Assembly: GCF_003173055.1 (NCBI RefSeq) | Contig: NZ_QGLF01000001.1 | Coordinates: 5,085-69,084, forward strand | Direction: 5' to 3' | DNA: 64,000 bases | DNA from: Zavarzinia compransoris | GTDB taxonomy: Bacteria; Pseudomonadota; Alphaproteobacteria; Zavarziniales; Zavarziniaceae | Shown: in pieces, positions 7,296 to 19,665 of the stretch | Numbering within the stretch: position 1 is the first letter of the stretch | Layout of the letters: every line of letters begins with the position of its first letter | Translations under genes and position numbers: made by a program | The notes under the pieces: model-generated | Told to the model about the DNA's origin: nothing | Database searches by the model: none | Seen by the model: only the letters and a program-made list of their open reading frames with translations

Positions 7296-7388
7296 GGAGT
7301 CGTGGCCGAGCGGCTGAAGGCGGCGGTTTGCTAAACCGTTATACGGGGTAAACCCGTATCGAGGGTTCGAATCCCTCCGACTCCGCCA
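7296..7388 (+). tRNA. tRNA-Ser (anticodon GCT), with long variable arm
   Basis: GGAGTCG-TG-GCCG..., anticodon stem GCGGT/ACCGT with loop TTGCTAA (anticodon GCT), long variable arm TATACGGGGTAAACCCGTATC, T-arm GAGGG-TTCGAAT-CCCTC, acceptor CGACTCC, discriminator G, CCA. Parsed by hand. Confidence 0.9.
7375..7388. repeat. attL core (direct repeat shared with attR at 19041-19054)
   Basis: ctccgactccgcca, identical at both positions. Confidence 0.7.
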
Positions 7389-7430
7389 ATTTTGCCAGTT
7401 TTACTGGCCTTCCCGCAGGGTTATGACGGC

Positions 7431-7453
7431 ACACCCGCCTAAAAACCCGCCTT
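7431..7453. repeat. candidate integrase arm-type sites (ACCCGCCT x2) near attL
   Basis: acACCCGCCTaaaaACCCGCCTtt. The same 8-mer pair occurs next to the int start (18889-18912) and inverted at 13093-13113. Confidence 0.45.
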
Positions 7454-7503
7454 TCCCGAAGTGATGGGATGCGATGGGGTAAGGCCCTGTGAGACGATGA
7501 AGA

Positions 7504-7528
7504 AAGCCGCCCTCGGGCGGCTTTTTGC
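7504..7528 (+). terminator. rho-independent terminator downstream of tRNA-Ser
   Basis: aaaGCCGCCC-tcg-GGCGGCtttttgct: GC-rich 7-bp stem followed by a T5 run. Confidence 0.7.
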
Positions 7529-7559
7529 TATGGGGCGTCGATGCCTTCGGGAGAGGACT

Positions 7560-7793
7560 ATGTTGCGCGTGACCTTCGAGGATGGTTCTGTGATCGAGTA
7601 CCGGGACGGCGAGGTGGTCGAGATTGAGAGCCACCCGCCCAGAGACACCCCAGCGGCGGGCTGGGTGCGCACGCGCGAGTATCCGCCGGAGTATCGACGC
7701 GCAACCCCGTTGAGCATCAACGTGCTGACGGTCGGGAAGCGGGTTCACACCGGCGGCGGCTTCGTCAAGGTCACGAGCATCGAGCGGGTCTGA
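7560..7793 (+). CDS. hypothetical protein (77 aa), first gene of satellite accessory module
   Basis: ATG at 7560 with GGAG 6 nt upstream. Product MLRVTFEDGSVIEYRDGEVVEIESHPP... has no recognisable domain. 4-nt gap to the next gene. Confidence 0.4.
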   Translation: MLRVTFEDGSVIEYRDGEVVEIESHPPRDTPAAGWVRTREYPPEYRRATPLSINVLTVGKRVHTGGGFVKVTSIERV

Positions 7794-7797
7794 GGTC

Positions 7798-8247
7798 ATG
7801 GCGAACGTGCCCAACAGCACCGGCAACGGAATCGCACCATTGGACCCGCAGCTTACCGGCAACGTGGGGCTGTACTACTGCTGCTATCGGCTTTCCCTCC
7901 TCGGGTGGAACGTCATGCCGACCGCGCGCAACGCCCGCGGGGTGGATATCATCGCCTACAGCCGGGACGCCTCCCGCTTCGTCGGGGTGCAGGTCAAGGC
8001 CCTGAGCAAGCGCAACCCGGTTCCCCTCGGGACCTCACTGGACAAGATCATGGGGGACTTCTGGGTGATCGTGAACAAGGTCGCCACGCCTACCCCTTCG
8101 GCCTTCATCCTCCTGCCCTCGGAGGTCCGGGAGCGCGCCCACCGCGGCGAGAAGGACGGGCGCGTGTCGTACTGGTTGCAGCCCGGAGACTATGAGCAGG
8201 ACCCGTTCCGCGAGGCATGGGAGCGGATCGGGCACGGGGGCGTCTGA
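7798..8247 (+). CDS. PD-(D/E)xK nuclease superfamily protein (YraN/UPF0102-like, Holliday-junction-resolvase-like fold)
   Basis: GNVGLYYCCYRLSLLGWNVMPTARNARGVDIIAYSRDASRFVGVQVKALSKRN matches the G..GE..A...L...G..IL.RN.R...GEIDLIA....LVFVEVK pattern of the YraN/restriction-endonuclease-like fold (D in VDII, Q-x-K in VQVK). Confidence 0.5.
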   Translation: MANVPNSTGNGIAPLDPQLTGNVGLYYCCYRLSLLGWNVMPTARNARGVDIIAYSRDASRFVGVQVKALSKRNPVPLGTSLDKIMGDFWVIVNKVATPTPSAFILLPSEVRERAHRGEKDGRVSYWLQPGDYEQDPFREAWERIGHGGV

Positions 8248-8253
8248 CGCTCG

Positions 8254-9123
8254 TTACAGCTCCTCGGGCAAGGCCAACCGCCAGCCGCGGGCGGTTTTCT
8301 GCTTCCCCCGCAGTAGGTCGCCAAAGCAAGTGCTGCTGATGCCGTGCCGCCCGCGGAAGTCTAGGCGCGTGCCGGTGTCGCGCTCGCCGGTCCTGACGTT
8401 GACGATCATGTAAGTTGTCAGATCAGCGTGCGCCCGGCGGACAGCCTCCGAGTTGCGTATGGCCTCGATGCGCCGGGCCTGAAAACTCGGGTCGGAGTGG
8501 ACGCGACGAAGCCCAGCAAGGCGACGGGCCTCCGTTTCAGGGTCTGCGCGGATGCGGGAGAGCTGTTCAGTGCTGCTTGCCCGCCACTGGGGATCATCCC
8601 GAAGGCGGGCCATTTTCTCCCGGTTGTCCTTCTTCCACTCTGGCGTTGCGGTTGCCCGCCGGGAGGCTTCGAGGCGGCGGGCTTGCACGTCCGGGTCCGC
8701 GCGAAGGCGGCGCATGGCCGCTTTGAAGTTGTCTGAGCTGCGCAGAGAGCTTGACAACTTCGCCCGTGCTTCTGTCGTGTAGCACTGCGCTTGCCCTCCA
8801 CCGGAGGTGAGGTTGTATCCCTTCGGGCTCAGGCAGTCGAAGCCCCAGATGTAGAAGCATTCCCGGTCGTTCAGCTCCTCGCGGGCGCATAGCTCCACGA
8901 TCTCAAACCCGAAGGCGTCCGGGCCGTGCTTTCGCAAAGCGGCGGCGAGCTTCGGGCTGTTTCCTTGTCCAGACAGGTGATCCTTCCAGCGGGTGGCGAT
9001 GCTCACGGACTGACCCACGTACCGCTTCCCGGTCGTGCGATGCGTGACAACGTAGATTCCGGCGAGCGGGCCGGAGGCTTCGCCCAGCAGACGGCGGGTC
9101 ATCGTGGCGCGGATCGTGTTCAT
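8254..9123 (-). CDS. GIY-YIG family nuclease with ~5 C-terminal 20-aa basic repeats (R-L/I-R-x-DP-x3-ARR motif)
   Basis: N-terminal GIYVVTHRTTGKRYVGQSVSIATRWKDH (GIY...YIG...R..H, then N of NLTSGG). C-terminal repeats: RRLRADPDVQARRLEASRRA / ARLRDDPQWRASS / SRIRADPETEARRLAGLRRV / HSDPSFQARRIEAIRNSEAVRRA. SD GGAG 9 nt upstream of ATG 9123. Convergent with the PD-(D/E)xK gene, 6-nt gap. Confidence 0.75.
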   Translation of the reverse strand: MNTIRATMTRRLLGEASGPLAGIYVVTHRTTGKRYVGQSVSIATRWKDHLSGQGNSPKLAAALRKHGPDAFGFEIVELCAREELNDRECFYIWGFDCLSPKGYNLTSGGGQAQCYTTEARAKLSSSLRSSDNFKAAMRRLRADPDVQARRLEASRRATATPEWKKDNREKMARLRDDPQWRASSTEQLSRIRADPETEARRLAGLRRVHSDPSFQARRIEAIRNSEAVRRAHADLTTYMIVNVRTGERDTGTRLDFRGRHGISSTCFGDLLRGKQKTARGWRLALPEEL

Positions 9124-9240
9124 GGCGTGCGCTCCATTTCTTGTAGAAGGTCAGCCCCGAAACCATCGACCGCTCACGCCTCGTGAGGGGCGAGGCTATT
9201 GCGTGAGGTCGAGCGGCTTCCGGCTCGGGGCTGAACTCGG

Positions 9241-9444
9241 TCAGCGACCCGTGCGCGGCTTCGCGTTCGGGCGCTTGTAGGCGTGATTGACGAAGCCTTT
9301 CAGCTTCGTGGCGACAGTGTCCCGCTTCATCGCGGCAATCTGGGTGTTGCGGGCGGCTGCGCGCTCCTCGTGGATGCGTGCAGCCTTCTTCACGTTCGGC
9401 ACGCTGCCGGGCATCGGTTTCGTGGTCATGGTCGGTTCCTCCAA
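9241..9444 (-). CDS. hypothetical small basic protein (67 aa)
   Basis: Fills the gap between the Zn-ribbon gene and the GIY-YIG gene on the same strand. No domain recognised. Confidence 0.3.
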   Translation of the reverse strand: MEEPTMTTKPMPGSVPNVKKAARIHEERAAARNTQIAAMKRDTVATKLKGFVNHAYKRPNAKPRTGR

Positions 9445-9630
9445 TCAGTAGATGTTGCGGATTTCCTCTGCACACTTCGGACAGATGCGGTTTCCCGCGT
9501 GCGCTGACCAGAAGTCGGAGGAACACCGAAGGCAGCGGCGGACTTTGACCCGCGGATCGCCGTCACGCAGCCACCTCGGTACATGCCCACCCCAACACTT
9601 GGGCTTGGGCGGGGCGGTCTCAGGCTTCAT
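9445..9630 (-). CDS. small Zn-ribbon protein (CxxC...CxxC), 61 aa
   Basis: MKPETAPPKPKCWGGHVPRWLRDGDPRVKVRRCLRCSSDFWSAHAGNRICPKCAEEIRNIY. Start taken at internal ATG 9630 because the upstream gene ends at 9620. Confidence 0.4.
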   Translation of the reverse strand: MKPETAPPKPKCWGGHVPRWLRDGDPRVKVRRCLRCSSDFWSAHAGNRICPKCAEEIRNIY

Positions 9631-10372
9631 CGCCCGCGGCTTGCGCAATCGCCTTCTCAGCGAGCGCCAGCGACAGGTTCTTGATCGGGTCGGCCTGTCC
9701 GCGGACAAATTCGCGGTCGGCGGCGATGGCCGATTCATAGGCGAGGATCACGCCCTTGAGCTTGGCGACAATCTCCGCGTGCTGCGCACCGAACACCCGC
9801 TGGGCGAAGTCGCCCACGGAGAACGGGCGGCGGTCGCGCGGGCGGCGATCCACAACCGTTGCGATGGCGGCGGCGAGCGGGAGGTCATTGGTGGCGATGG
9901 CGGTCACGGCGGCGGTTTCGAGTTCCACCGGCCCGGCCCCTTCGAGCGTGAGCTGGTAGTTCAGGCGCTTCGTGTCGCCCAGGGCGATCCGCCCAAGGGC
10001 CTGCGCCGGGGACTGGTTCAGGGACAGCAGGAATTCGGCGTCAGCGGCGAGCTTGGCGAACGGGCGCAACAGTTCCTCGCGCTGGGCGCGCGACGATTCC
10101 GCGATGGTCAGGCGGAACTTGGCGATGCGGGAGGCTTCTTGCTGCTTGGCGAACTGGCGGGCAACGGTGCGGTTGGCCGGTTCGGTTTCGCGGACAACCT
10201 CCTCAGCTTCGCGGCTGAAGCGGTCGCGGGCCTCCGCTACCTGCTGCTGAATCTTGGCGATGCGCGCCTGAAAGGCGGTCGCAAGTTCGGTGGCGCGGGC
10301 GGTCAGCCGGTCGATGTTCTCCGCGGTCAGCGGAACATCGGTGGGGACCTTCTTGAAATCTACGGTGGCCAT
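9620..10372 (-). CDS. hypothetical phage-like protein (250 aa), coiled-coil rich
   Basis: Start MATVDFKK at 10372 with AGGAG 8 nt upstream. No recognisable domain. First gene of the minus-strand cargo operon. Confidence 0.45.
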   Translation of the reverse strand: MATVDFKKVPTDVPLTAENIDRLTARATELATAFQARIAKIQQQVAEARDRFSREAEEVVRETEPANRTVARQFAKQQEASRIAKFRLTIAESSRAQREELLRPFAKLAADAEFLLSLNQSPAQALGRIALGDTKRLNYQLTLEGAGPVELETAAVTAIATNDLPLAAAIATVVDRRPRDRRPFSVGDFAQRVFGAQHAEIVAKLKGVILAYESAIAADREFVRGQADPIKNLSLALAEKAIAQAAGDEA

Positions 10373-10528
10373 GTTCGGGCTCCTCTGAAAAGTCATCACG
10401 ACTCGGAAGGGCCTCTTGACACGTCACCGGCGGGGCCACTCCCAACCTAAAGCGCGAGCGCCAAATGCCCGCACTTTCGAGGAACCATACTGGAAGAATG
10501 GACAGCGCGGCAAGAAAAAGAAGTTGTA

Positions 10529-10560
10529 GATCAATGACTTGCGTAAAAAGTAAAGTCCGC
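10529..10560. promoter_or_regulatory. 31-bp motif repeated at 17572-17602 (candidate satellite promoter/operator)
   Basis: gatcaatgacttgcgtaaaaagtaaagtccgc here vs gatcagtcacttaccgaaaaagtatagtgcc at 17572-17602 (~26/31 identical). Both lie immediately upstream of minus-strand genes (hyp250 and alpA). Confidence 0.45.
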
Positions 10561-10580
10561 CGGGGTGCCCCCCGAACCCC

Positions 10581-11987
10581 TCACACATACATGATCCGGT
10601 CCCCCGTGTCGGGCAGGCGCGGCGGAGGTCCGGCGAAGTCGCCCACGCTCACGACACCCTGCGAAGCCCCACTGATCAAATATGACGTGGCATCCAGCAT
10701 GTGATCGTTCGCGGAGGTGTCCACGTCCTCTGGGCGGCGCGGATCGCGCGGCAGAGCCGGGACGGTGGAGAGCCAGAACCGGCAGCGCGAGGCCACGAAG
10801 AACTCCCCCTGCACCATCAGTTGCTTGATGACCTCGAAGCGCGGGACGCGCGCCCCCTTGCGAGCGGGCGTGACCCGCACACCGGCGGCGCGGAATAGAT
10901 CGCTGATGCTGTCCTCGTGACGCCCGGCGGTCTTGGCTTCGGCGGCGGCGTCGATGACGCCCCGCGCGCGGACACCGGAGCGGGCGCACATGGCGTGAAG
11001 GGCGGGCGCAATCTGCGACGGCGAACGGCCCGTGCCGCGGGCGATGTTGCGCGGGTCGAACTCCGCGTGTTCATCGTAGATGACCCACGAGCCCCGCGGC
11101 ATCACCCGGTCATCGCTCAGGCGAACATCGAAGGCGAGCTGACCGCCCAGCACAGCGGCCATCGGTGCGGCGCTGCCCCAGTCGATGCCGAGCTTCAACG
11201 AGGTGAACAAGTCGGGCGGGACCTCGTGATGATCGAACACGGCGCGCGAGTGCTGCCATGACCCGCTGAAGAAGTCTCCCGTCAGCGCGGACCAATCGCC
11301 CTCACGGTGCGCCCGGTACAGCGCCGGGTCGGTGTGTTTCAAGACCTCGAAGTTGCGGCGGTACGCCTCCGGCAGGTGCGGGTTGTCATCGACCACGCTG
11401 GGCGCATAGACCCAAGTGTTGCCGCCGAACTCGAACGGAGCCCAAGGGGTCCGCGCGGTCACGTAGCGTTCAGCGAGGGCGCTGTGATTCTGCCCGCCGG
11501 GGTTCCCGGCCAAGACCATGCGAAGCGGGACGCCCGGCGCGCGCAGCGATAGCCCGAGCTGGTCGATTACGTCCATGCCCGGACCTTCGCCCGCTTCATC
11601 GACCACGATCAGGCTGTATGAGTGACCCTGCGCAACGTCACTCAGGGCCGAACTCGATTCAACGTGCGTCAGCGTGATCGTGGCCCCGTTCGGGAGCCTG
11701 AACACGTTGTCGTTCATGTTGTAGGCGACCTCACGCCCATAGGCGGAGCGCAGCAGCGCGCGGGTTTCCTCCGCGAACTGAAGCAGCGACTTCAACCGGC
11801 GGCGGGTCACGAGGACGCGGGCGCGGTTCTTGTACTGGTCGCAGTGCCGCAGGATGAGCAGTTGCAGGCCGAAGGACTTGCCGCCCCCGCGGCCCCCGCC
11901 AAGGAACAAGAAATGATCTTCCGGGACGGCGAGCACGCGCGCCTGGAACGGGGTCGGGGCAATGATGTTGTTAGGTGGGCTGGACAT
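10581..11987 (-). CDS. terL: phage terminase large subunit
   Basis: Walker A GGGRGGGKSF, Walker B LIVVDEAGEG, C-terminal RNaseH-like nuclease motifs (LGIDWGSAAP; DHMLDATSY). 468 aa. Confidence 0.8.
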   Translation of the reverse strand: MSSPPNNIIAPTPFQARVLAVPEDHFLFLGGGRGGGKSFGLQLLILRHCDQYKNRARVLVTRRRLKSLLQFAEETRALLRSAYGREVAYNMNDNVFRLPNGATITLTHVESSSALSDVAQGHSYSLIVVDEAGEGPGMDVIDQLGLSLRAPGVPLRMVLAGNPGGQNHSALAERYVTARTPWAPFEFGGNTWVYAPSVVDDNPHLPEAYRRNFEVLKHTDPALYRAHREGDWSALTGDFFSGSWQHSRAVFDHHEVPPDLFTSLKLGIDWGSAAPMAAVLGGQLAFDVRLSDDRVMPRGSWVIYDEHAEFDPRNIARGTGRSPSQIAPALHAMCARSGVRARGVIDAAAEAKTAGRHEDSISDLFRAAGVRVTPARKGARVPRFEVIKQLMVQGEFFVASRCRFWLSTVPALPRDPRRPEDVDTSANDHMLDATSYLISGASQGVVSVGDFAGPPPRLPDTGDRIMYV

Positions 11988-12399
11988 GGATCACCCTCGC
12001 GTATTCCTCGGGGCTCAAGGCCGCATTGATTTGAATGAGGACGCGGGGCGCTTCGCCGGGGCCGTCCTCGCGCCCAATCTTGTAGAGCTTGTCGCCCAGC
12101 CACTCCGCGGCGCGGGTGTCGCCTTCCTTCATCCGGGCGCGCATGACGGCGATGACCTCGCCCGCGCCTTCGGCCCGGCCTTCCTCGATTGCCAGCGCCA
12201 GCGGGGACAGCTCGCCTTCGGCGTCGTCCTTCTTGAGGGCGTTCCACTGCGCGGGGGATAGCCCAAGGGTCCGGCGGATAGCGTGCTCGCGGCACCCTTC
12301 GGCGGCGAGTTCGCGCACTACGTTCAGCGCGTCAGCGGGCAGGCCCTTCGTGGCGAGGTCGCGGACGATGCCCTTGGTCAGTTGGGTGTTGCGGCTCAT
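11971..12399 (-). CDS. terS: phage terminase small subunit (P27/Terminase_2-like)
   Basis: 142 aa. ...RARMKEGDTRAAEWLGDKLYKIG... Located immediately upstream of terL with a 17-bp overlap. N-terminal HTH-like region. Confidence 0.55.
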   Translation of the reverse strand: MSRNTQLTKGIVRDLATKGLPADALNVVRELAAEGCREHAIRRTLGLSPAQWNALKKDDAEGELSPLALAIEEGRAEGAGEVIAVMRARMKEGDTRAAEWLGDKLYKIGREDGPGEAPRVLIQINAALSPEEYARVIHVQPT

Positions 12400-13022
12400 G
12401 CTTCGGCCTCCTCGGTGGCGAGGGCGGCGGCGGCTTCCAAGTCCTTCCTGATGCGGTAGATCGCGGACTTGCCGGCGTGCGTGATCGTGCGGACACGGTC
12501 GGGCTTCACCCCGGCCTTGAGCAGCGCGGCGATCTTGTCCTCAAGGCTCCGGGACATGCGAGGTGCGCCGATCTTCACGCCCTTGGCCCTCGCCTTGCGG
12601 TGGCCCCGGCGCAGGGCCTCTACGCGCACAGCCTTGTCGAACGTGACCACGGCGGCGACGGCGCGGAGGATCGCGGCCCCGGCGGGCGTGCGGGTGTCGA
12701 GGTCGAGGTCAGCGACGTACAGGCCAGCGCCAGCCACGGACAGCTCGCGGAGCAGTTTTTCGAGGTCGCCCACACTACGGGCCAGCCGGTCGAACGAAAC
12801 AGCAGCGATGCCATCCGCTGCGCCCCGGAGGGTGTCGAAGATCGCGCGGTCAAGGTACGGGCGGGGATCGCGGGCGGCGCGGGTGTCGATGTTCTCGTCA
12901 GCGTACTCAGCAACCACCTCATGCCCAGCAGCGGCGCAGAAGGCGCGGAGCGGGGCGAACTGGTCCTCAGTGGCGGGGTCGGTGTCGAGTGCCCGGCGGG
13001 CGTACAGGATGAAGCGGGCCAT
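12396..13022 (-). CDS. serine-recombinase (resolvase/invertase)-fold protein with catalytic Ser replaced by Ala; C-terminal HTH
   Basis: MARFILYARRALDTDPATEDQ aligns to the resolvase consensus GYARVSTxxQ, with VST replaced by RAL. Conserved SFDRLARSVGDL (DRLxRS motif) and a C-terminal HTH (ITHAGKSAIYRI) are present. Confidence 0.6.
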   Translation of the reverse strand: MARFILYARRALDTDPATEDQFAPLRAFCAAAGHEVVAEYADENIDTRAARDPRPYLDRAIFDTLRGAADGIAAVSFDRLARSVGDLEKLLRELSVAGAGLYVADLDLDTRTPAGAAILRAVAAVVTFDKAVRVEALRRGHRKARAKGVKIGAPRMSRSLEDKIAALLKAGVKPDRVRTITHAGKSAIYRIRKDLEAAAALATEEAEA

Positions 13023-13320
13023 GATTGTCGGTGCCTATCGAAGTTGTGATTTCGATTAGATTCTAGCGACCGGATCACGGGAGATAAAGGTTTTTAGGCG
13101 GGTGTATAGGCGGGTTTATCCGCGAAACATGCGGAAATTCCAAAGACTATGGCGAACTGCGGGGAGAAAGCCTCCGCCATAATCCGCGCGGCGTGATCTT
13201 GTATGCGTGCCGGTCGCTGCTGGCCCATGACGCCGGGCGGCGGCGCGGTGCGATCCGCCCAAGTAGCAGCGCAAGCGGCGAGTTCACACGGCTCCAGCGG
13301 CCTACATCAGAACTTTTTAG

Positions 13321-13557
13321 GGGGCCGTGATACTCAGAACCCCCAGCCGTTTCTGGCTTTCTTTCTCTTTTCTAACGACTCAGACGACTATCACGGCTAA
13401 ATAATCTCGGGAGGAAATCGCGGCCTTCCTCCGTCCGCCCCTTGGGCATAGCAGCCGCAGAATCCCCCCGAGATAAAACCCCCGCGATAGTCGATGTAGT
13501 CGTGGGAAAATCACCCAAGCCCCAGTCGCTATGGGCTTTCGCTGTATCACGGCCCCC
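13321..13557. repeat. 13-bp perfect inverted repeat (GGGGCCGTGATAC ... GTATCACGGCCCC) flanking ~210 bp of AT-rich non-coding DNA inside the satellite
   Basis: Left arm 13321-13333, right arm 13544-13556, third partial copy tatcacggc at 13389-13397. Sits in a 570-bp gene-free region (13023-13595) that also carries an inverted copy of the arm-type motif at 13093-13113. Confidence 0.6.
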
Positions 13558-13595
13558 GAAGAAGTTTCAGCGAGGCCGTGAGATTCCAGCGGCCC

Positions 13596-14159
13596 TCAGA
13601 CTTGATCCAGGTGCGACTCCACCACGGCCTCCACAAACGTCAGGACGTTCTCGCGCCCCGGATCGAAGCCGAAGGCTTCCCTGATCGCCTCGCGCACACG
13701 GATCGCAGCGCGGTGCAGCGGCAGGCCCACAGAGTCATTCCCGAACGACAGGAACACGCGGCCTTCATCCTCGCGTCCCGGCGCATACTGGAGCCGATCA
13801 ACCAGCGCACGCGCGGCGCTGCGGGTGTTCCGATAGGTCGGCAGCGGGGTTCCGCGATCATCGACAGCGTCCCAATGGCGCGTCAGGTAGCGAACGGCCC
13901 AAGCGGTCAGCATTGCGAAGTCGCCAATGTCGAAGCCGAAGTGTTCTTGCACCATCTCACGCAAGTGACGGTGCGCATCCACCGCTGGGATGGACTCCTC
14001 CCGGCCTTTGAGGCGAAGCATCCAGCGGTCGTCAGTCGGTGGGCCGTTCCAGTCCTCGGCTTGGCAGCCCAGCATCTGGATCGCGCGGACCACGTTCTTG
14101 TAGTTGTTGGTGATGTTGCCGCGTTCGTCGCGCAGCCAGTCGCTCATGTACAGCTTCAT
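13596..14159 (-). CDS. hypothetical protein (188 aa) downstream of primase
   Basis: Start MKLYMSDW at 14159. No recognisable domain. Confidence 0.4.
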   Translation of the reverse strand: MKLYMSDWLRDERGNITNNYKNVVRAIQMLGCQAEDWNGPPTDDRWMLRLKGREESIPAVDAHRHLREMVQEHFGFDIGDFAMLTAWAVRYLTRHWDAVDDRGTPLPTYRNTRSAARALVDRLQYAPGREDEGRVFLSFGNDSVGLPLHRAAIRVREAIREAFGFDPGRENVLTFVEAVVESHLDQV

Positions 14160-14222
14160 GTCAGTTCTCCGAAGGATCGCCGGGCTTTCGACAGGGGAGC
14201 CCGGCGGCGTCCCCAAGTCGTT

Positions 14223-16694
14223 TCAGAACGGCGATCCGTCATCACCATCGGCGTCCGGTTTCTTCGGCGGCGGCAGGTCTGTCCAGCGGTCGGAGCCGTC
14301 CCACGGTGCCGGAATCTTCACCCGGTCCCATGCGGCGCGAGCATCCGCCAGAGTGGGCAGAGCGAACCCGCGCACGGGGTACTGGCGATACTCGAACCCC
14401 AGCGCCTTCAGCAGGTCGGCCACCTCGTTGGGCGTCACGTCGCGCCCGCGATCTTTCCTGAGCCGGGCGTTCACGAGTTCGCACAGCCGCGTGGTCGAGA
14501 CGAAAGGCAGCGTGCGCGCTTTCTTGTCCAGCCACCGCTCCACCGGCAGCTCGCCGGTTTGGAGGATGTCGAGAAAGGCCCGCTCCACGCCCCGCAGGCC
14601 GGCGAGCTTCTGCTCAGTCAGCGCGTCGGTCTGGGGGATGTTCCAGCGCGGGTGAAAGCCGTCCAGATCCATTTCGAGCAGGTCATGGAGCATCGCGGCC
14701 AGCCCGCCGTTTGCCATCTGTTCAGCGAGGGGGCCGAAGTAGTCCCGATCCTGCGCGCGGTTGCCGTTCACGTTGAACACCGCATAGCGGCGCTCATCGC
14801 TGCTGGCTGGCACCACCCACTTTTCGTTGGACGCCATGACCACGTGGAGCATGTTGTTGACCTGCACCGCGTTCGCGCCCTTGCCTTCAACAACAAAGGT
14901 CGGCTCCGTGATGAGGCCCTGCAAGCGCCCGGAGCGTTCGTTGTCGTCGGGCGCGACGGCCTCATCAGCGAACACCAGCACCGCATCGCGGAGGTGAGCG
15001 TTGAACTTGCCGGTCAGGTAGTCCCCCGAGAAGATGTGAAGGCCGTGCTGGCCGAACAGGTCTTTCAGCGCCCGCGCGAACATGCCCTTGCCCGCGCCCT
15101 TGCCACCCCGGAACACCAGCGCAGCCTCCGCAGGCTTGTGGGGGTTCTGAACGGCCCACGCAGCCCATTTCAGGATGTAGTCGGCGTGCTCGGCGTTGCC
15201 ATCGGCCAGGACGGCTTCGACGTGGGCGCGCATCAGTGACCAGTCGCCCGGTTGCGGCTTCACGCCCCAGCCGCGCCAGAGGTTCAGGTTCCTGCCGACC
15301 GTCTCGGGCTTCTTCGGGTGAAAGCACAGCTCATCGAATTGGCGGCGAGCTTCTTGCAGCAGCCACCACTTGCCCACGGGGACCTCGATGGGCTTGCCGT
15401 CCTTGTCGGTTCCGGCCTCAACTCGCAGGTGGCAGTAGCGGTGCTGGAAGTCCTCGAACGATTGAAGCAGCGGCACCCAGCGCCCGCGCTGTTCCTCGCG
15501 CGGCTTGTCGTCGTCATCGTCAGTCATCAGCGGAACCCAAGACCACGCGAGCACGCGACACTTGCCGCCTTCCTGACTCAGGACGGCGTGCATGTTGTTC
15601 AGATACTCCAAGGCGATCTTCGGATGCCGCCACCACTTGCGGCCGATCTCCTCCCATGCGCGGAAGATTTGGCGCTTTGCGTAGCCCTCCCAGCTCGGTT
15701 GTTCGCGCACGCTCTCAGCGATGGCGTTGCCCGGATCGGTGATGACCCGGAAGATCACCGCGTCATCGACGCCCGCGCGCACGAGGTCGAGGCAGACCTT
15801 GAACAAGGGTTCGGAGCGCGACGGGTACTTGGTCGGCTCTACCGGGTCCTGTCCGGTGGCGATCAGCGCAAGCGTGTTGTCGCGGATCGTATTGCCGTTC
15901 GCAGCGGCCCACTCGCGCAGGTCATCGGTGCTGCACGGCGCGACGTGGCCCGGAACCCAGTCAGACGGCGCGGCTGTACCGTCGCCCACAGAAGGGCGCG
16001 GCGATGCCTTCCTGCTGGCCGTAGGTGTGCCGCCGGTGATCGTTTCGGCTTTCGGGGGCGCGGCCTTGAAGGCGGTCAGCGGATAGGCCGCATCATTCCA
16101 GCCGCAGACCTCGGCCTTGCTCGGCTCGCGGCCCTTCGCCCGCTTCTTCGGATCGGGCCAGTTCGTCAGCCCCGGCAGGCGCGCGATACGGTCAACATTG
16201 AAGCAGTGATCACCGCCAAGGCGGTTTGCCAATTCGACGTTGAACGCTTCGGCCTTCTCCCACGGCTTGTCGGTTTCGCTGGCCGGGGTCGGAATGTCGA
16301 GCGGTTCCGAAAGGCGCCACATCCCCCAATAGCCTCCGCCGGAGTCGATGACCAGCGACGGCGCAGGAATGTCCTTGGGCATTCCACCATTCAGCAGGGA
16401 CCTGATGCGTTGGCGTTCCTGCTCGAAGTCCTCGCCTGCACGCGGGTCAACATCGACCCACAGCCATTCGAGGCGGGCAATGTCGGTTTTCTCGGCTTTC
16501 TTGTTGATCGGCTCGCGCGTGGGGTTGATGCCGAAGTAGATGTTGTGGGTCTTGTTCTTCTCCAGCGCCCACGCTTCCGCCTTCGCCGCATCGGTGAATG
16601 TGACGCCGGGCGGTGTTCCCTTCTTGTCCGGGTGCATGGCGACCAGCAGCCACGGCCCGCCGGGACGGAACTTGTTGAGGAAGTCAGCAATCAT
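14223..16694 (-). CDS. bifunctional DNA primase/polymerase (prim-pol) fused to P4-alpha/D5/VirE-type NTPase (replication initiator/helicase)
   Basis: 823 aa. N-terminal prim-pol motifs (NIYFGINP; LEWLWVDVD; DSGGGYW) and a C-terminal P-loop FRGGKGAGKGMFARAL...LVFADEA typical of the P4-family primase C-terminal domain (TIGR01613/VirE-like). Confidence 0.8.
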   Translation of the reverse strand: MIADFLNKFRPGGPWLLVAMHPDKKGTPPGVTFTDAAKAEAWALEKNKTHNIYFGINPTREPINKKAEKTDIARLEWLWVDVDPRAGEDFEQERQRIRSLLNGGMPKDIPAPSLVIDSGGGYWGMWRLSEPLDIPTPASETDKPWEKAEAFNVELANRLGGDHCFNVDRIARLPGLTNWPDPKKRAKGREPSKAEVCGWNDAAYPLTAFKAAPPKAETITGGTPTASRKASPRPSVGDGTAAPSDWVPGHVAPCSTDDLREWAAANGNTIRDNTLALIATGQDPVEPTKYPSRSEPLFKVCLDLVRAGVDDAVIFRVITDPGNAIAESVREQPSWEGYAKRQIFRAWEEIGRKWWRHPKIALEYLNNMHAVLSQEGGKCRVLAWSWVPLMTDDDDDKPREEQRGRWVPLLQSFEDFQHRYCHLRVEAGTDKDGKPIEVPVGKWWLLQEARRQFDELCFHPKKPETVGRNLNLWRGWGVKPQPGDWSLMRAHVEAVLADGNAEHADYILKWAAWAVQNPHKPAEAALVFRGGKGAGKGMFARALKDLFGQHGLHIFSGDYLTGKFNAHLRDAVLVFADEAVAPDDNERSGRLQGLITEPTFVVEGKGANAVQVNNMLHVVMASNEKWVVPASSDERRYAVFNVNGNRAQDRDYFGPLAEQMANGGLAAMLHDLLEMDLDGFHPRWNIPQTDALTEQKLAGLRGVERAFLDILQTGELPVERWLDKKARTLPFVSTTRLCELVNARLRKDRGRDVTPNEVADLLKALGFEYRQYPVRGFALPTLADARAAWDRVKIPAPWDGSDRWTDLPPPKKPDADGDDGSPF

Positions 16695-17041
16695 TCTGCG
16701 ACCTCCTGAAACACGTACACTCCGCGGCGATACCCGGCCTTGTTGTCGAACCAGCCGTTGTCGGCGGGATCGGCCTTGCCGCCCATCACCTCGTTGCAGT
16801 GTTCGAGGGTGCGACGGAACCAGACGGCCCGCGGCGAGCGGTCGGAGGAGCGCGCGGCCTGCTCGGTCAGTTCTTCGAGCTGGGCAAGGACCGTATCAAC
16901 AAGGTGTTGATCGGCTTCGGTGTTGCACTCAGGCCCGGCAGGGAACACGCGGAGAGGGTCGAGGCGGAGCAGCCATGCGACGTAGGACGCGCGGCGGGCT
17001 TCGGCGGGCGCAGCTATTTGCGCAGTGAGGCTCGGTTTCAT
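16691..17041 (-). CDS. hypothetical protein (116 aa)
   Basis: 4-bp overlap with the primase gene start. No domain recognised. Confidence 0.35.
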   Translation of the reverse strand: MKPSLTAQIAAPAEARRASYVAWLLRLDPLRVFPAGPECNTEADQHLVDTVLAQLEELTEQAARSSDRSPRAVWFRRTLEHCNEVMGGKADPADNGWFDNKAGYRRGVYVFQEVAE

Positions 17042-17053
17042 GGGTCCGCCTCC

Positions 17054-17299
17054 TCACTGCTCTTGCGCATTCAGCCACGCATCAATCTCGTTCAGGTCCC
17101 AAACGGTTGCACGGGGACCGATCTTGCGAGCGCGGGGGAAGTCGGGGCGTTCGGCGTGCCAGCGCCAGAGGGTGGCGAGACTGACGCCCAGATATTGAGC
17201 GGTGCCGGTGGGGCGGGCGTTGCGCCGTTCTTGGCGGCGGGCGAGTTCTTCGGCTACAGCCTGCTTCAAGGCTGGCAGCGGGATCGTTTCTTGTTTCAT
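17054..17299 (-). CDS. AlpA-family phage transcriptional regulator / excisionase (HTH_17)
   Basis: MKQETIPLPALKQAVAEELARRQERRNARPTGTAQYLGVSLATLWRWHAERPDFPRARKIGPRATVWDLNEIDAWLNAQ matches the AlpA pattern. Confidence 0.65.
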   Translation of the reverse strand: MKQETIPLPALKQAVAEELARRQERRNARPTGTAQYLGVSLATLWRWHAERPDFPRARKIGPRATVWDLNEIDAWLNAQEQ

Positions 17300-17603
17300 G
17301 GTGGCGAATCCTTGAGCGTTCAGCTCACGCCACCGGGGACCTTGTAGGCTGCGCGGGCGGCGGGAGCGGCAAGCCCCATGAGGGGCGGCTACTCTCACGC
17401 CACCGCTGCAACTACAGCGGATCAGGACCCGTGCTGGGCCGGGGCAGCGCCCCGGAACCTGTGTCCTTGTGGAGATACCGGCAGGTCAACGCCGCTTCGT
17501 TGGCGTCGCCTCCTGTCTCCAGCGATCAATCGAGGGGAATAGTAGCGAATAAGACGACAGAAGTCTATACGGATCAGTCACTTACCGAAAAAGTATAGTG
17601 CCT

Positions 17604-18881
17604 TCACTTCGCGCAGTACGCGGCCCAATCGGCCATAAGTGCCTGTCGTTTCTGGAAAAGACTGCCACGCGCATAGGCGGCTTCGGCCTTGTCCTTGAGC
17701 TGGTGCGCAAGGGCGTGTTCGATGACCTCGCGGGGGTGGTGCGTTGTCTCGCCTGCCCAGTCACGGAAGGTCGAGCGGAACCCGTGCGGGGTGGCAACCT
17801 TCGGGTTGCCGTTCTTGTCGGTTTGCTTCGGGTCGATGTAGCCCTTGTGCCCGGCCTTCGTCTCGCTTTCGTGCATACGCTTGATGACTGCGGCCAGCGT
17901 CATATCCGACAACTCGCCGCCACGGGATGCGGGGAATACAAGGTTGTTGTCCTCGAACCGCGGGAGGGCCTTCAACAAGGCCACCGCCTCCTCGGTGAGC
18001 GGCACGGTGTGTTCCTTGCCCATCTTCATGCGGTCCGCCGGGATCGTCCAGACTCCGGCCTCAAGGTCGATTTCGTCCCACTTCGCCCCGCGTACCTCGC
18101 CGGAGCGGGCGGCGGTCAGAATGGTGAACTCCAGCGCCCGCGCGCCGGTGCCTTCCATCTTGCGCAGATGCGTCATGAACGCGGGGGCCTCCGCGAAGGG
18201 CAGCGCGGCATGGTTGCCGTTCTTCGCCACTTTCGACGGCTTGGGCAACATCGCCTCAAGGTTCCCCCTCCAGCGCGCCGGGTTCGAGCCGTCGCGGTAC
18301 TTGCGAGCCGTAGCCCAATCCAGAACGGACTCGATGCGCCCGCGGAGCCGTTCGGCTGTCTCGGTTTTCACCTTCCAGATCGGTTCGAGCACTTCCAAGA
18401 TATGCGGCGTGTCGATGTCGCGCACCTGTAGCTTGGCGAGGGTCGGGAAGGCGTAAGTGGTCAGCGTGTTGGTCCACTGCTGGGCGTGCTTCGCGTTCTT
18501 CCACTCGGGGGACTTCGCCTCAATGCACAACCGCGCGGCCTCCTCGAACGTGATCTCAGTCGCCCGGCTCGCCAGCAGCGCGGAGCGCGCGGCCTTGCGC
18601 TCCGCTATCGGGTCGATGCCTTGGGTGATCTTCTCCCGGACCTCCCGCGCCTTGTCTCGGGCCTGCTGTAGCGTCACCGCCGGATACCCGCCCAAGCCGA
18701 CCTCGCTGCGGCGCTGCTTGCCGCTCGCGGTCGCACCGATAGTGACCCGCAGCAGCCAGGTCTTTCCTCCGCCGGGGAGGACTTGAAGATGGAGCCCAGG
18801 AACACCCCCAACGGCGTACATTCCCGGCTGTGAGAGGCGTTTCACCTCCAACGCTGATAGTTCTTTCGCAACTCGTGGCAT
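17604..18881 (-). CDS. int: tyrosine-type site-specific integrase, P4-like (DUF4102 arm-binding N-terminus)
   Basis: N-terminus LSALEVKRLSQPGMYAVGGVPGLHLQV (P4-int arm-binding domain), core-binding and catalytic domains with R..HxxR..Y pattern (HGFRSTFRDWAGE; LAHQL...AYAR). Start lies 8 nt from the arm-type repeats and 160 bp from the attR core. Confidence 0.85.
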   Translation of the reverse strand: MPRVAKELSALEVKRLSQPGMYAVGGVPGLHLQVLPGGGKTWLLRVTIGATASGKQRRSEVGLGGYPAVTLQQARDKAREVREKITQGIDPIAERKAARSALLASRATEITFEEAARLCIEAKSPEWKNAKHAQQWTNTLTTYAFPTLAKLQVRDIDTPHILEVLEPIWKVKTETAERLRGRIESVLDWATARKYRDGSNPARWRGNLEAMLPKPSKVAKNGNHAALPFAEAPAFMTHLRKMEGTGARALEFTILTAARSGEVRGAKWDEIDLEAGVWTIPADRMKMGKEHTVPLTEEAVALLKALPRFEDNNLVFPASRGGELSDMTLAAVIKRMHESETKAGHKGYIDPKQTDKNGNPKVATPHGFRSTFRDWAGETTHHPREVIEHALAHQLKDKAEAAYARGSLFQKRQALMADWAAYCAK

Positions 18882-18888
18882 AATCTCG

Positions 18889-19030
18889 CACCCGCCTATA
18901 CACCCGCCTAAGATTACGCGATCTTACGCGATAAGTCGAGACCATCCGAGACGATCGCCGCGGCAGAAGTCTTGTATTTACGCGGGTTTGCTGGCACTAT
19001 GGCGACGTTACGCGATGACGCGAGACGCTA
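18889..19030. repeat. attR-proximal arm: ACCCGCCT x2 plus 4 copies of TTACGCGA(T) direct repeat
   Basis: cACCCGCCTatacACCCGCCTaag at 18889-18912, then gaTTACGCGATcTTACGCGATaag ... gTTTACGCGgg ... cgTTACGCGATgacgcgag. Candidate integrase/Xis arm-type binding sites. Confidence 0.45.
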
Positions 19031-19040
19031 CGGTGGGGGA

Positions 19041-19054
19041 CTCCGACTCCGCCA
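19041..19054. repeat. attR core (copy of tRNA-Ser 3' end)
   Basis: ctccgactccgcca identical to 7375-7388. Flanks diverge after gcca. Confidence 0.7.
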
Positions 19055-19242
19055 TTGTGCCGTTTTGGCAACACTCGCCGCTGTTCGCGGTCGTCCCAAA
19101 CATTCCCGGAAGACCCTGAAAATATGTGAGTTTCGCGAAACTTGCATAGTCGTTCGTTGGGGTCTGATTCCTGGAATGCTTATCTCTGTTCGCCGCTATC
19201 CCCGCCGTTGTGGTGGACAGGAAGTGGACAGGGCAGGAGAAC

Positions 19243-19665
19243 ATGACGGGAACGGCGATCAATAAACTTAGCCCCAGGTTTGTTCAGACGGTGACAGATT
19301 CGGGCCGCTATGGTGACGGCAACGGCCTTTACCGGCGCTGGCTGCTGATCCGGCGCGGCCGTGCCGATCCCAATGCGCTCGCCTACTACTTCGCCTTCGC
19401 CCCCGAGGCGGCCGGCCTCCCGGAACTGGCCGGTGCCGCCGGCCTGCGGTGGACGATCGAGGAGTGCTTCCTGCGCGCCAAGGATGATCTCGGCCTGGAT
19501 CATTGTGAAGCCCGCTCCTGGACCGGATGGCATCGCCACATGAGCCTGGTCATGATGGCGGCGGCCTTCCTGGCCAAACTCGCCGCCGATCTGCGCCGCG
19601 CCGCCAGCGGACCCGACAACAGCAAACCGAACGAAACGAGTCCAATCAGCGCCTCCGCCGCCTGA
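19243..19665 (+). pseudogene. chimeric remnant: 30 codons of a second P4-type integrase N-terminus fused to the C-terminal ~115 codons of an IS701-family DDE transposase
   Basis: MTGTAINKLSPRFVQTVTDSGRYGDGNGLY (integrase arm-binding start, compare LTDTEIKAAKP...DGDGLxL) then an abrupt switch to YRRWLLIRRGRADPNALAYYFAFAPEAAGLPELAGAAGLRWTIEECFLRAKDDLGLDHCEARSWTGWHRHMSLVMMAAAFLA, matching the IS701/IS4-like transposase C-terminus. Confidence 0.6.

Follow-up and report, generated by a model that had tools for sequence, protein, structure and literature searches.

In current classifications of phage satellites, the phage-inducible chromosomal islands (PICIs), P4, the PICI-like elements (PLEs), and the minimalist chromosomal islands inducible by phages (PICMIs) borrow the large terminase subunit (TerL) of a helper phage, whereas the capsid-forming PICIs (cf-PICIs) build their own heads. 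Classical PICIs encode only the small terminase subunit (TerS) or Rpp, carry no TerL, and use that of the helper (de Sousa et al. 2023, PMC10085698), and cf-PICIs are defined by capsid, protease, portal, connector, and HNH genes (Alqurainy et al., bioRxiv 10.1101/2022.09.08.507074). Here, we analyzed an 11,666-bp integrative element of Zavarzinia compransoris, which occupies positions 7389 to 19054 of a 64,000-nucleotide stretch of contig NZ_QGLF01000001.1 (this whole stretch is referred to as the window, and coordinates of the element are given in it). The element encodes both terminase subunits and no recognizable virion structural protein, and we consider it likely to be a helper-dependent phage satellite that packages itself with its own terminase. 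It apparently belongs to a conserved, widespread, and uncataloged satellite lineage.

The locus shares features with several described systems. As in the Gram-negative PICIs of the EcCICFT073 type, it is an att-flanked island of ~10 to 12 kb in which int, alpA, and pri are co-directional and are followed by a packaging module with TerS, and variable accessory or defense cargo occupies the far end. Unlike these PICIs, it carries a full TerL, contrary to the definition, as well as a resolvase-like gene and an unrelated 250-residue helical protein (p250), and its TerS is not recognized by Pfam, PHROGs, or NCBIfam. The likeness to cf-PICIs lies in the possession of both TerS and TerL, the latter on a deep branch apart from phage TerLs, in a packaging process that would be independent of the helper terminase, and in the distant relationship of the hosts. 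However, the element has no major capsid protein (MCP), protease, portal, or connectors and would need the heads and tails of a helper; the terminase-associated HNH gene of cf-PICIs is also missing, with no HNH gene in the window and one in a single relative (L005), where it is not beside the terminase. With P4, the element has in common a P4-type integrase at a tRNA 3' end, a regulator of the AlpA/Vis family, a large primase-helicase, and a similar length (~11.7 kb, compared with 11.6 kb for P4), but no window open reading frame (ORF) matched a Sid, Psu, Delta, or Epsilon family in the same three databases. P4 itself is not known to carry terminase genes and uses those of its helper, P2. Tycheposons and virion-encapsidated integrative mobile elements (VEIMEs) also combine a tRNA-targeting tyrosine integrase with a primase/helicase module and sometimes carry a small serine recombinase together with TerS. 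They have been reported with MCP or TerS, never with TerL, and the packaging module described here shows no detectable relationship to theirs.

The element thus fits none of the PICI, cf-PICI, and P4 definitions; it is PICI-like in integration, regulation, and replication and cf-PICI-like in supplying its own terminase. A full-text literature search, which was not exhaustive and leaves room for an earlier description, found no report of satellites that carry TerS plus TerL without a head module. The combination, in a widespread lineage, would represent a third packaging strategy, one that stands between the PICIs (TerS only) and the cf-PICIs (whole head).

Terminase genes and the search for head genes

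The core genes all lie on the minus strand, with transcription running from int toward the tRNA. The order along the element is integrase, AlpA, a 116-residue ORF, primase, a 187-residue ORF, the resolvase-like gene, TerS, TerL, p250, a Zn-ribbon ORF, a 62-residue ORF, and the nuclease cargo. The boundaries of the element and the genes up to p250 are listed below, where close loci are the 41 loci whose TerL is 69 to 100% identical to that of the window.

7296 to 7388, plus strand: tRNA-Ser(GCT), the integration target, whose last 14 nt are the attL core (ARAGORN; Rfam tRNA, 58.5 bits)
7375 to 7388, plus strand: attL core, CTCCGACTCCGCCA, one of only two exact copies in the 64-kb window
9620 to 10372, minus strand: p250, all-helical, 250 residues, directly after TerL (39 of 41 close loci)
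10581 to 11987, minus strand: TerL, 468 residues, ATPase and nuclease (Terminase_3 at 5.8e-11, above the Pfam cutoff; phrog_2 at 2e-26 over residues 8 to 439)
11971 to 12399, minus strand: TerS, 142 residues, overlapping TerL by 17 nt (no direct family match)
12396 to 13022, minus strand: resolvase-like small serine recombinase, 208 residues (PF00239 at 6e-22 over residues 5 to 149; gamma-delta resolvase alignment)
13596 to 14159, minus strand: hypothetical protein, 187 residues (source-genome gene call; nearest relatives only; no family match)
14223 to 16694, minus strand: prim-pol/D5-like primase-helicase, 823 residues (DUF5906 at 5e-19; phrog_1829 at 2e-54)
16691 to 17041, minus strand: conserved hypothetical protein, 116 residues, between AlpA and primase (tblastn, 32 to 97% in most close relatives)
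17054 to 17299, minus strand: AlpA-family regulator/excisionase, 81 residues (PF05930 at 2.2e-8; gene call)
17604 to 18881, minus strand: P4-type tyrosine integrase, 413 to 425 residues (Arm-DNA-bind_3, Phage_int_M, and Phage_integrase in Pfam)
19041 to 19054, plus strand: attR core, CTCCGACTCCGCCA, the second of the two exact copies in the window

Both the ATPase and the RNase H-like nuclease of a large terminase are present in TerL. Across 18 homologs, the residues G31 to K37 (Walker A), D130/E131 (Walker B), N162-P163-G165, D269, D346, and D428/H429/D432 are invariant, and a BLASTP alignment with TerL of phage Bhz59 spans the full length of the protein and takes in the C-terminal DVDTxAxDH motif. 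The nearest TerL in 50,697 cultured phage genomes is <30% identical, and a profile search against PDB sequences returned nothing at 1e-3. Close homologs, at 56 to 90% identity, fall into ~70 clusters and have a constant length of 462 to 472 residues.

We assigned the 142-residue product as TerS because of its translational coupling to TerL, a profile link to a recognizable homolog, and its predicted topology. The link runs through a 154-residue protein of a relative, which the window protein matched with an hhalign probability of 96.5% (E value of 7e-10) and which itself matches phrog_309, "terminase small subunit," at 8e-14. The AlphaFold2 (AF2) model, built from 54 sequences (pLDDT of 76), has three short N-terminal helices resembling a helix-turn-helix (HTH), a long helical hairpin, and a disordered tail; an HTH with a helical hairpin is the usual plan of TerS proteins. 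A PDB profile search found nothing for TerS, and an hhalign comparison with TerS of phage Bhz59 was negative. A TerS and a 468-residue TerL with intact motifs had been proposed in the first-pass annotation of this DNA; the invariance of the catalytic residues bears this out for TerL, and the profile link does so for TerS.

The resolvase-like gene, which overlaps the start of TerS by 4 nt, encodes a resolvase catalytic domain and a C-terminal HTH. In the window copy, the nucleophile (S10 of gamma-delta resolvase) is replaced by Ala at residue 11, in the context YARRALDTD. Among relatives, Ser is kept (RVST) in roughly half of the subclades and was lost independently in several others (RRAL, RVAI, RPHP, and RPML), and the gene remains full-length and coupled to TerS despite this loss. 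Since the gene stays intact and coupled where Ser has been lost, its conserved role cannot be recombination catalysis. Judging from its predicted protein, the window copy cannot be a catalytic recombinase and is probably a DNA-binding accessory factor or regulator of the packaging operon.

In Pfam, PHROGs, and NCBIfam, the window ORFs had no match among capsid, portal, protease, connector, tail, or lysis families, which agrees with the earlier claim that capsid, portal, and tail genes are absent; the virion structural genes needed for autonomous spread are thus missing from the element. Portals were readily detected in phage controls, given that four IMG/VR contigs of 32 to 67 kb with a TerL at 29 to 33% identity have a portal gene directly after TerL (497 to 805 residues, matched at 1e-43 to 6e-160), and the absence of virion genes from the element is therefore real and not a failure of detection. 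Five portal queries, namely, the four control portals and that of phage Bhz59, matched no satellite-band locus. An MCP was found in only 1 of the 41 close loci (L004), and a portal or tail gene was found in none. We also compared the noncore ORFs of at least 220 residues from 26 delimited relatives (41 representatives) with Pfam, and no virion family was matched. The matches comprised DNA methylases (8 representatives), BamHI, a Pycsar-type TIR, AAA_15/AAA_21, PRTase-CE, Beta_protein, NADAR, HNH, ParA-like, and Peptidase_M78 proteins, that is, the cargo of the relatives consists of restriction-modification (RM), defense, and nuclease genes.

The single MCP gene, at 12374 to 13303 of L004 (JGI Ga0183872_10019114), matches phrog_212 at 1e-64 and stands right after the p250 homolog in a 12.2-kb element that has no portal. 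Its product shares about 70% identity with the MCPs of siphophages of the Mesyanzhinovviridae with genomes of ~61 kb, including Stenotrophomonas phage Bhz59, Bordetella phages MW2, CN2, and FP1, and Pseudomonas aeruginosa phages BL4, PC1, and Chuck, a kinship that hints at the type of helper that L004 might use.

Boundaries, selection, and a widespread family

Exact repeats of 14 nt flank the element, which is inserted at the 3' end of tRNA-Ser(GCT). L008, which is a metagenomic copy from another host and has the same sequence as L170, shows 96.3% nucleotide identity to positions 7389 to 19054, and its homology stops exactly at both ends of the element, at 7389 and at 19054. L008 is inserted in a different tRNA, and its core, CTCCGTCTCCGCCA, is one base off, with the change present in both attL and attR; the att core likewise co-varies with the host tRNA in more than 20 relatives. 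With a compact att-bounded form, the element falls in the size range of phage satellites (about 7 to 20 kb). These results agree with the 14-bp attL and attR boundaries given in the first-pass annotation, which had also placed a P4-type integrase next to attR (three Pfam domains at 17604 to 18881) and had correctly named AlpA (PF05930) and a prim-pol/D5 primase (DUF5906 and phrog_1829).

As in other satellites, integrase, regulator, and replication genes are the element's own. The HxxR, H, and Y residues are visible in the translation of the integrase. The primase matched TIGR01613 (P4 family) at 1.6e-6 with 27 bits, which is below the cutoff of 108.7 bits. Its N terminus has motifs like those of archaeo-eukaryotic primases (WVDVD and SGGGYWGMW, read from the translation), and its homologs match RepB_primase and Prim-Pol.

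All 14 ORFs are intact in both the window copy and L008, with no stops or frameshifts, and they appear to be under purifying selection. The ratios of nonsynonymous to synonymous substitution rates (dN/dS) in the comparison with L008 were 0.045 for p250, 0.057 for TerS, 0.06 for TerL, 0.065 for AlpA, and 0.07 for the 149-residue ORF, followed by 0.12 for the integrase, 0.19 for the primase, 0.24 for the GIY-YIG nuclease, and 0.35 for the resolvase-like protein. The values for terL and int show that neither is a pseudogene, which the first-pass annotation had raised as a possible objection.

A scan of one genome per species identified 139 relatives in 185,579 species-representative genomes, and 166 were found in IMG/VR. 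The 41 close loci have the common order Int-AlpA-116aa-primase-resolvase-TerS-TerL-p250, often with the Zn-ribbon and 62-residue ORFs next after p250. In 26 relatives, a repeat of the 3' end of the host's own tRNA marks the limits of the element; sizes range from 9,855 to 13,279 bp (median, ~11.6 kb), and the tRNA is always found at the end away from int, which is also the case in the window. The repeats are mostly 14 to 16 nt of a tRNA-Ser of any anticodon, and some are of tRNA-Thr, -Gly, or -Glu, in elements with a different integrase. The other objection named at the outset, relatives with the same genes plus capsid and portal genes in synteny, did not materialize, as about 40 relatives are 10 to 13 kb long and have the same core. 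A subgroup of rearranged elements (L014, L015, L037, L098, and L100) has the order resolvase-TerS-p250-...-TerL, with TerL last, beside tRNA-Thr.

Carriers among the Betaproteobacteria include Rhodocyclaceae, Thauera, Comamonas faecalis, Methylobacillus flagellatus, and Gulbenkiania, and those among the Gammaproteobacteria include Pseudomonas paraeruginosa ATCC 9027, Zestomonas thermotolerans, Stenotrophomonas, Pseudoxanthomonas, Arenimonas, Thioalkalivibrio, Halomonas, and Methylocaldum; Acidithiobacillus (Acidithiobacillia) and Zavarzinia (Alphaproteobacteria) complete the range. In two copies on betaproteobacterial contigs of 112 to 126 kb (L006 and L009), TerL, TerS, and the resolvase-like protein are 99 to 100% identical in amino acid sequence to those of Zavarzinia. 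The G+C content of the element is about 65%, compared with about 69 to 72% in the Zavarzinia flanks, and this low value together with the nearest copies being in Rhodocyclaceae-type Betaproteobacteria suggests a recent acquisition across classes. Modules are also combined differently between copies. In L019, AlpA, the resolvase-like protein, and TerS are 100% identical and TerL is 79% identical, and in L020, L021, and L029, the integrases are 97 to 98% identical and AlpA is 54% identical. As far as can be read from the sequences, this mosaicism shows ongoing exchange.

TerL relatives at 34 to 43% identity revealed two further types of compact island without a portal. One, found mainly in sphingomonads (type ii), has the order Int-HTH_17-PrimPol/DUF5906-TerS-TerL-small ORF, followed by a protein of ~240 residues (p237), a 90-residue protein (p90), and cargo of RM, toxin-antitoxin, and Peptidase_M78 genes; it integrates at tRNA-Lys with repeats of 46 to 50 nt and is 14 to 15 kb long. 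The other (type iii) has the order Int-replicase-coiled-coil protein-MCP (Gp13-like)-TerS-TerL, with the att site directly after TerL. Within this range of identity, 20 of 42 loci from genomes and 18 of 38 from IMG/VR are of type iii; examples include L078 (~8.9 kb) as well as L064 and L072, where TerL is immediately followed by tRNA-Val. L126 (IMGVR_UViG_3300013497_000032) is circular, with a terminal overlap of 99 nt and 9.58 kb of unique sequence, and encodes an integrase, a DnaG-Zn/DUF3987 replicase, a coiled-coil protein, a Gp13-like MCP, TerS, and a TerL that is 37% identical to the window's, and no portal. TerS of the sister types is recognizable (phrog_309 at 8e-14 and 1e-7; GP3_package at 1e-3). 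We tentatively propose that there is a large, uncataloged group of terminase-encoding satellites without a portal, with at least three architectures (resolvase-TerS-TerL-p250, TerS-TerL-p237-p90, and coiled-coil-MCP-TerS-TerL) and a TerL clade apart from all cultured phages, and that its members apply their own motor to helper procapsids; this is well possible, though we hold it with clear reserve.

Two further loci were also observed. L085 is a more distant TerL island of 14.4 kb at tRNA-Lys with an AAA_25 replicase, which encodes a tail fiber-like protein of 434 residues (12677 to 13981; phrog_31 at 3e-9) and several ORFs of 296 to 351 residues without an assignment; this island may be a satellite with a receptor-binding protein of its own. 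In L112 (5019 to 12389 of the 31.8-kb contig IMGVR_UViG_3300043675_000027), TerS and TerL of the satellite clade (39%) lie directly downstream of a tape-measure gene of 1,372 codons, and this locus may be a satellite within or beside a prophage tail module.

Packaging model and competing explanations

We infer that the element depends on a helper, excises, and applies its own motor to the helper's procapsids. On the pattern of Gram-negative PICIs and P4, infection by or induction of a helper phage would trigger AlpA-dependent excision and replication. The element's TerS would then recognize a packaging site on the element's own DNA, and its TerL would dock on the portals and procapsids of the helper and pump in the satellite DNA, while the helper would supply heads, tails, and lysis. 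With its own TerS and TerL in use, packaging specificity would be independent of the helper's terminase. The resolvase-like protein would act as the DNA-binding accessory or regulator of the packaging operon. The distal slot would hold cargo, nucleases here and RM or defense genes in relatives, as is usual for satellites. Finally, the best candidate for coupling the element to helper procapsids is p250, which might be a scaffold-like protein, a size-redirecting protein, or a portal adaptor.

The case for p250 is based on its position. A homolog directly precedes the MCP gene in L004, a scaffolding protein of 256 residues precedes the MCP of phage Bhz59, which is homologous to that of L004, and in type iii elements, a coiled-coil protein and MCP adjoin the terminase genes, although on the upstream side of TerS and not after TerL. 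These parallels place p250 at the position of a scaffolding gene, and we therefore favor a scaffold-like, size-redirecting, or portal-coupling role, which is a possibility that we would put somewhat short of even. The AF2 model is confident (pLDDT of 90.6) and has nine helices. The protein is homologous to the ~240-residue protein of the sphingomonad-type relatives (tblastn matches in 37 of 41 close loci), and none of its 124 homologs has a Pfam domain or a functional name. No match to p250 was found in the 50,697 cultured phage genomes or in Pfam, PHROGs, NCBIfam, or PADLOC.

Several points weigh against the satellite interpretation. The helper phage is hypothetical, and a TerL that has no portal of its own must fit that of another phage, an uncommon demand. 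Excision, replication, and encapsidation are likewise predictions. For the expected attP junction, GGGGGACTCCGNCTCCGCCAATTTTGCC, neither JGI metagenome contigs nor IMG/VR gave a match, although both negatives are weak, as the abundant copies come from Logan/ENA assemblies, and all of the close-family contigs examined are integrated copies. Metagenome contigs of ~11 to 12 kb, which we considered as possible circles, proved to be integrated copies that break at att and have no terminal overlap. TerS has no family match in Pfam, PHROGs, or NCBIfam, and its Foldseek search was not significant, with Sf6 gp1 only among the weak matches. p250 has no informative structural or sequence relative, so that its candidate role is a positional inference only. 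In addition, L004 and the sister family carry a capsid gene, and structural genes may therefore go unrecognized in the element.

The alternative that survives best, although we consider it unlikely, is that the element is an anti-phage interference or defense island in which TerS, TerL, and p250 sabotage the packaging of an invader, through portal competition or concatemer cutting, and that it spreads rarely or by other means. Satellites commonly block the packaging of their helpers, the cargo slot of the relatives holds RM and defense genes, the window copy carries two nucleases, and neither JGI metagenome contigs nor IMG/VR yielded a packaged or excised form in the attP searches. However, the full set of integrase, AlpA, and replicase, the narrow size of 10 to 13 kb, the near-identical copies in different classes, and the mosaicism point to frequent transfer of the whole unit, and self-packaging calls for a complete TerL, with both ATPase and nuclease, and a TerS dedicated to it, which the element has and which are under strong purifying selection. 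The two activities, interference and self-packaging, are also compatible with each other.

It is more doubtful still, and in our view improbable, that the element is a self-sufficient mini-virus or a capsid-forming satellite whose capsid and portal genes (p250 or the 187-, 149-, and 116-residue proteins) are too divergent to be recognized. The HK97-type MCP right after the p250 homolog in L004, the sister family with coiled-coil protein, MCP, TerS, and TerL, and the presence of several ORFs of no known family are consistent with this explanation. Against it, p250 is confidently predicted to be all-helical, which does not allow an HK97 capsid fold, and the remaining uncharacterized proteins have at most 187 residues, well below the size of the portals detected in the control contigs. 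An MCP is confined to a single close locus, and the relatives that do carry one also lack a portal.

An integrative replicon that is moved by a nonphage vehicle, such as a gene transfer agent (GTA)-like particle, a tailocin-derived head, or a vesicle, with the terminase serving only to cut concatemers to unit length, is very improbable. Its attractions are the alphaproteobacterial host, the lack of a known helper, and the resolvase-like gene in the packaging operon, but most carriers are Beta- or Gammaproteobacteria, whereas RcGTA-type systems are mainly alphaproteobacterial, and translocation by TerL needs a procapsid that bears a portal. A decayed prophage remnant that retained integrase, replication genes, and terminase would account for the phage-type genes, the homing endonuclease-like gene included, and an insertion sequence (IS) fragment lies just outside attR, but this explanation is hardly credible in view of the same compact architecture with intact att sites at about 40 loci in many taxa, the intact ORFs under purifying selection, the lack of any relative with a full virion module, and the distance of TerL from every cultured phage TerL.

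If the element does package itself with its own terminase, packaging specificity would be uncoupled from the helper, which would help to explain the near-identical copies across proteobacterial classes, and the question arises of how a helper portal can accommodate a foreign TerL. p250 would then be a new type of capsid- or portal-coupling factor, and the resolvase-like protein, which is often catalytically dead, would be a DNA-recognition part recruited to the packaging operon. Marker-based detection that expects the gene sets of PICIs, cf-PICIs, P4, or PLEs would miss this family, which carries RM and defense cargo across class boundaries. The hypothesis is directly testable in culturable carriers, including Pseudomonas paraeruginosa ATCC 9027, Stenotrophomonas nitritireducens, Methylobacillus flagellatus, and Comamonas faecalis.

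Putative integrase arm sites, accessory genes, and flanks

A bipartite motif of 20 nt, ACCCGCCTWWAMACCCGCCT, occurs exactly three times in the 64-kb window, with zero copies expected, and all three copies are within the element.

7433 to 7452, plus strand: bipartite repeat ACCCGCCTAAAAACCCGCCT, putative arm-type integrase site (P' arm), 45 nt inside attL
13096 to 13115, minus strand: third bipartite copy, ACCCGCCT, in inverted orientation compared with both arm copies; it precedes the resolvase-TerS-TerL operon by ~75 nt
18890 to 18909, plus strand: bipartite repeat ACCCGCCTATACACCCGCCT, putative arm-type integrase site (P arm), in the upstream region of int

The three-site layout recurs in 11 relatives, and elements with other integrases have variant octamers at both arms. 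Since the presence of the repeat follows the identity of the integrase and not that of AlpA, the most fitting interpretation of the two end copies is that they are arm-type integrase sites. The same pattern disfavors two other candidates for binding the ACCCGCCT repeats, namely, AlpA and the resolvase-like protein. The position of the internal copy hints that packaging operon and recombination machinery are linked. An Rfam scan of the sequence detected the tRNA only, and a scan for promoters and terminators performed no better than on shuffled sequences.

The genes between p250 and the tRNA are as follows.

9445 to 9630, minus strand: Zn-ribbon ORF, ~61 residues, CxxC-x14-CxxC, unannotated in the source genome (phrog_13335 at 2e-4)
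9241 to 9429, minus strand: conserved small ORF, 62 residues (source-genome gene call; tblastn, 47 to 97% in relatives)
8254 to 9123, minus strand: GIY-YIG homing endonuclease-like nuclease, 289 residues, cargo (PF01541 at 6e-7; TIGR01453 at 9e-20; phrog_314 at 2e-25; PADLOC HEase at 4e-10)
7798 to 8247, plus strand: PD-(D/E)xK-like protein, 149 residues, cargo (motif GVDIIA...VQVKAL from the translation; weak match to phrog_5018 at 1e-4)
7560 to 7793, plus strand: hypothetical ORF, 77 residues, at the cargo end (source-genome gene call; no family match)

The Zn-ribbon ORF overlaps the stop codon of p250, and its motif, DPRVKVRxC[IL]xC..FWSAHAGxRxCxxC, is conserved in close relatives. It resembles the zinc finger late activators Ogr of P2 and Delta of P4 in size only, and no homology to them was found. 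This ORF had been overlooked in the first-pass annotation, as had the resolvase-like gene, p250, and the GIY-YIG and PD-(D/E)xK-like cargo.

Just outside attR, a C-terminal fragment of a DDE transposase (PF01609 at 3.6e-4; 19210 to 19665, plus strand) represents an IS remnant beside the hotspot of integration, and host genes for LpxR and methylmalonyl-CoA mutase lie beyond it.

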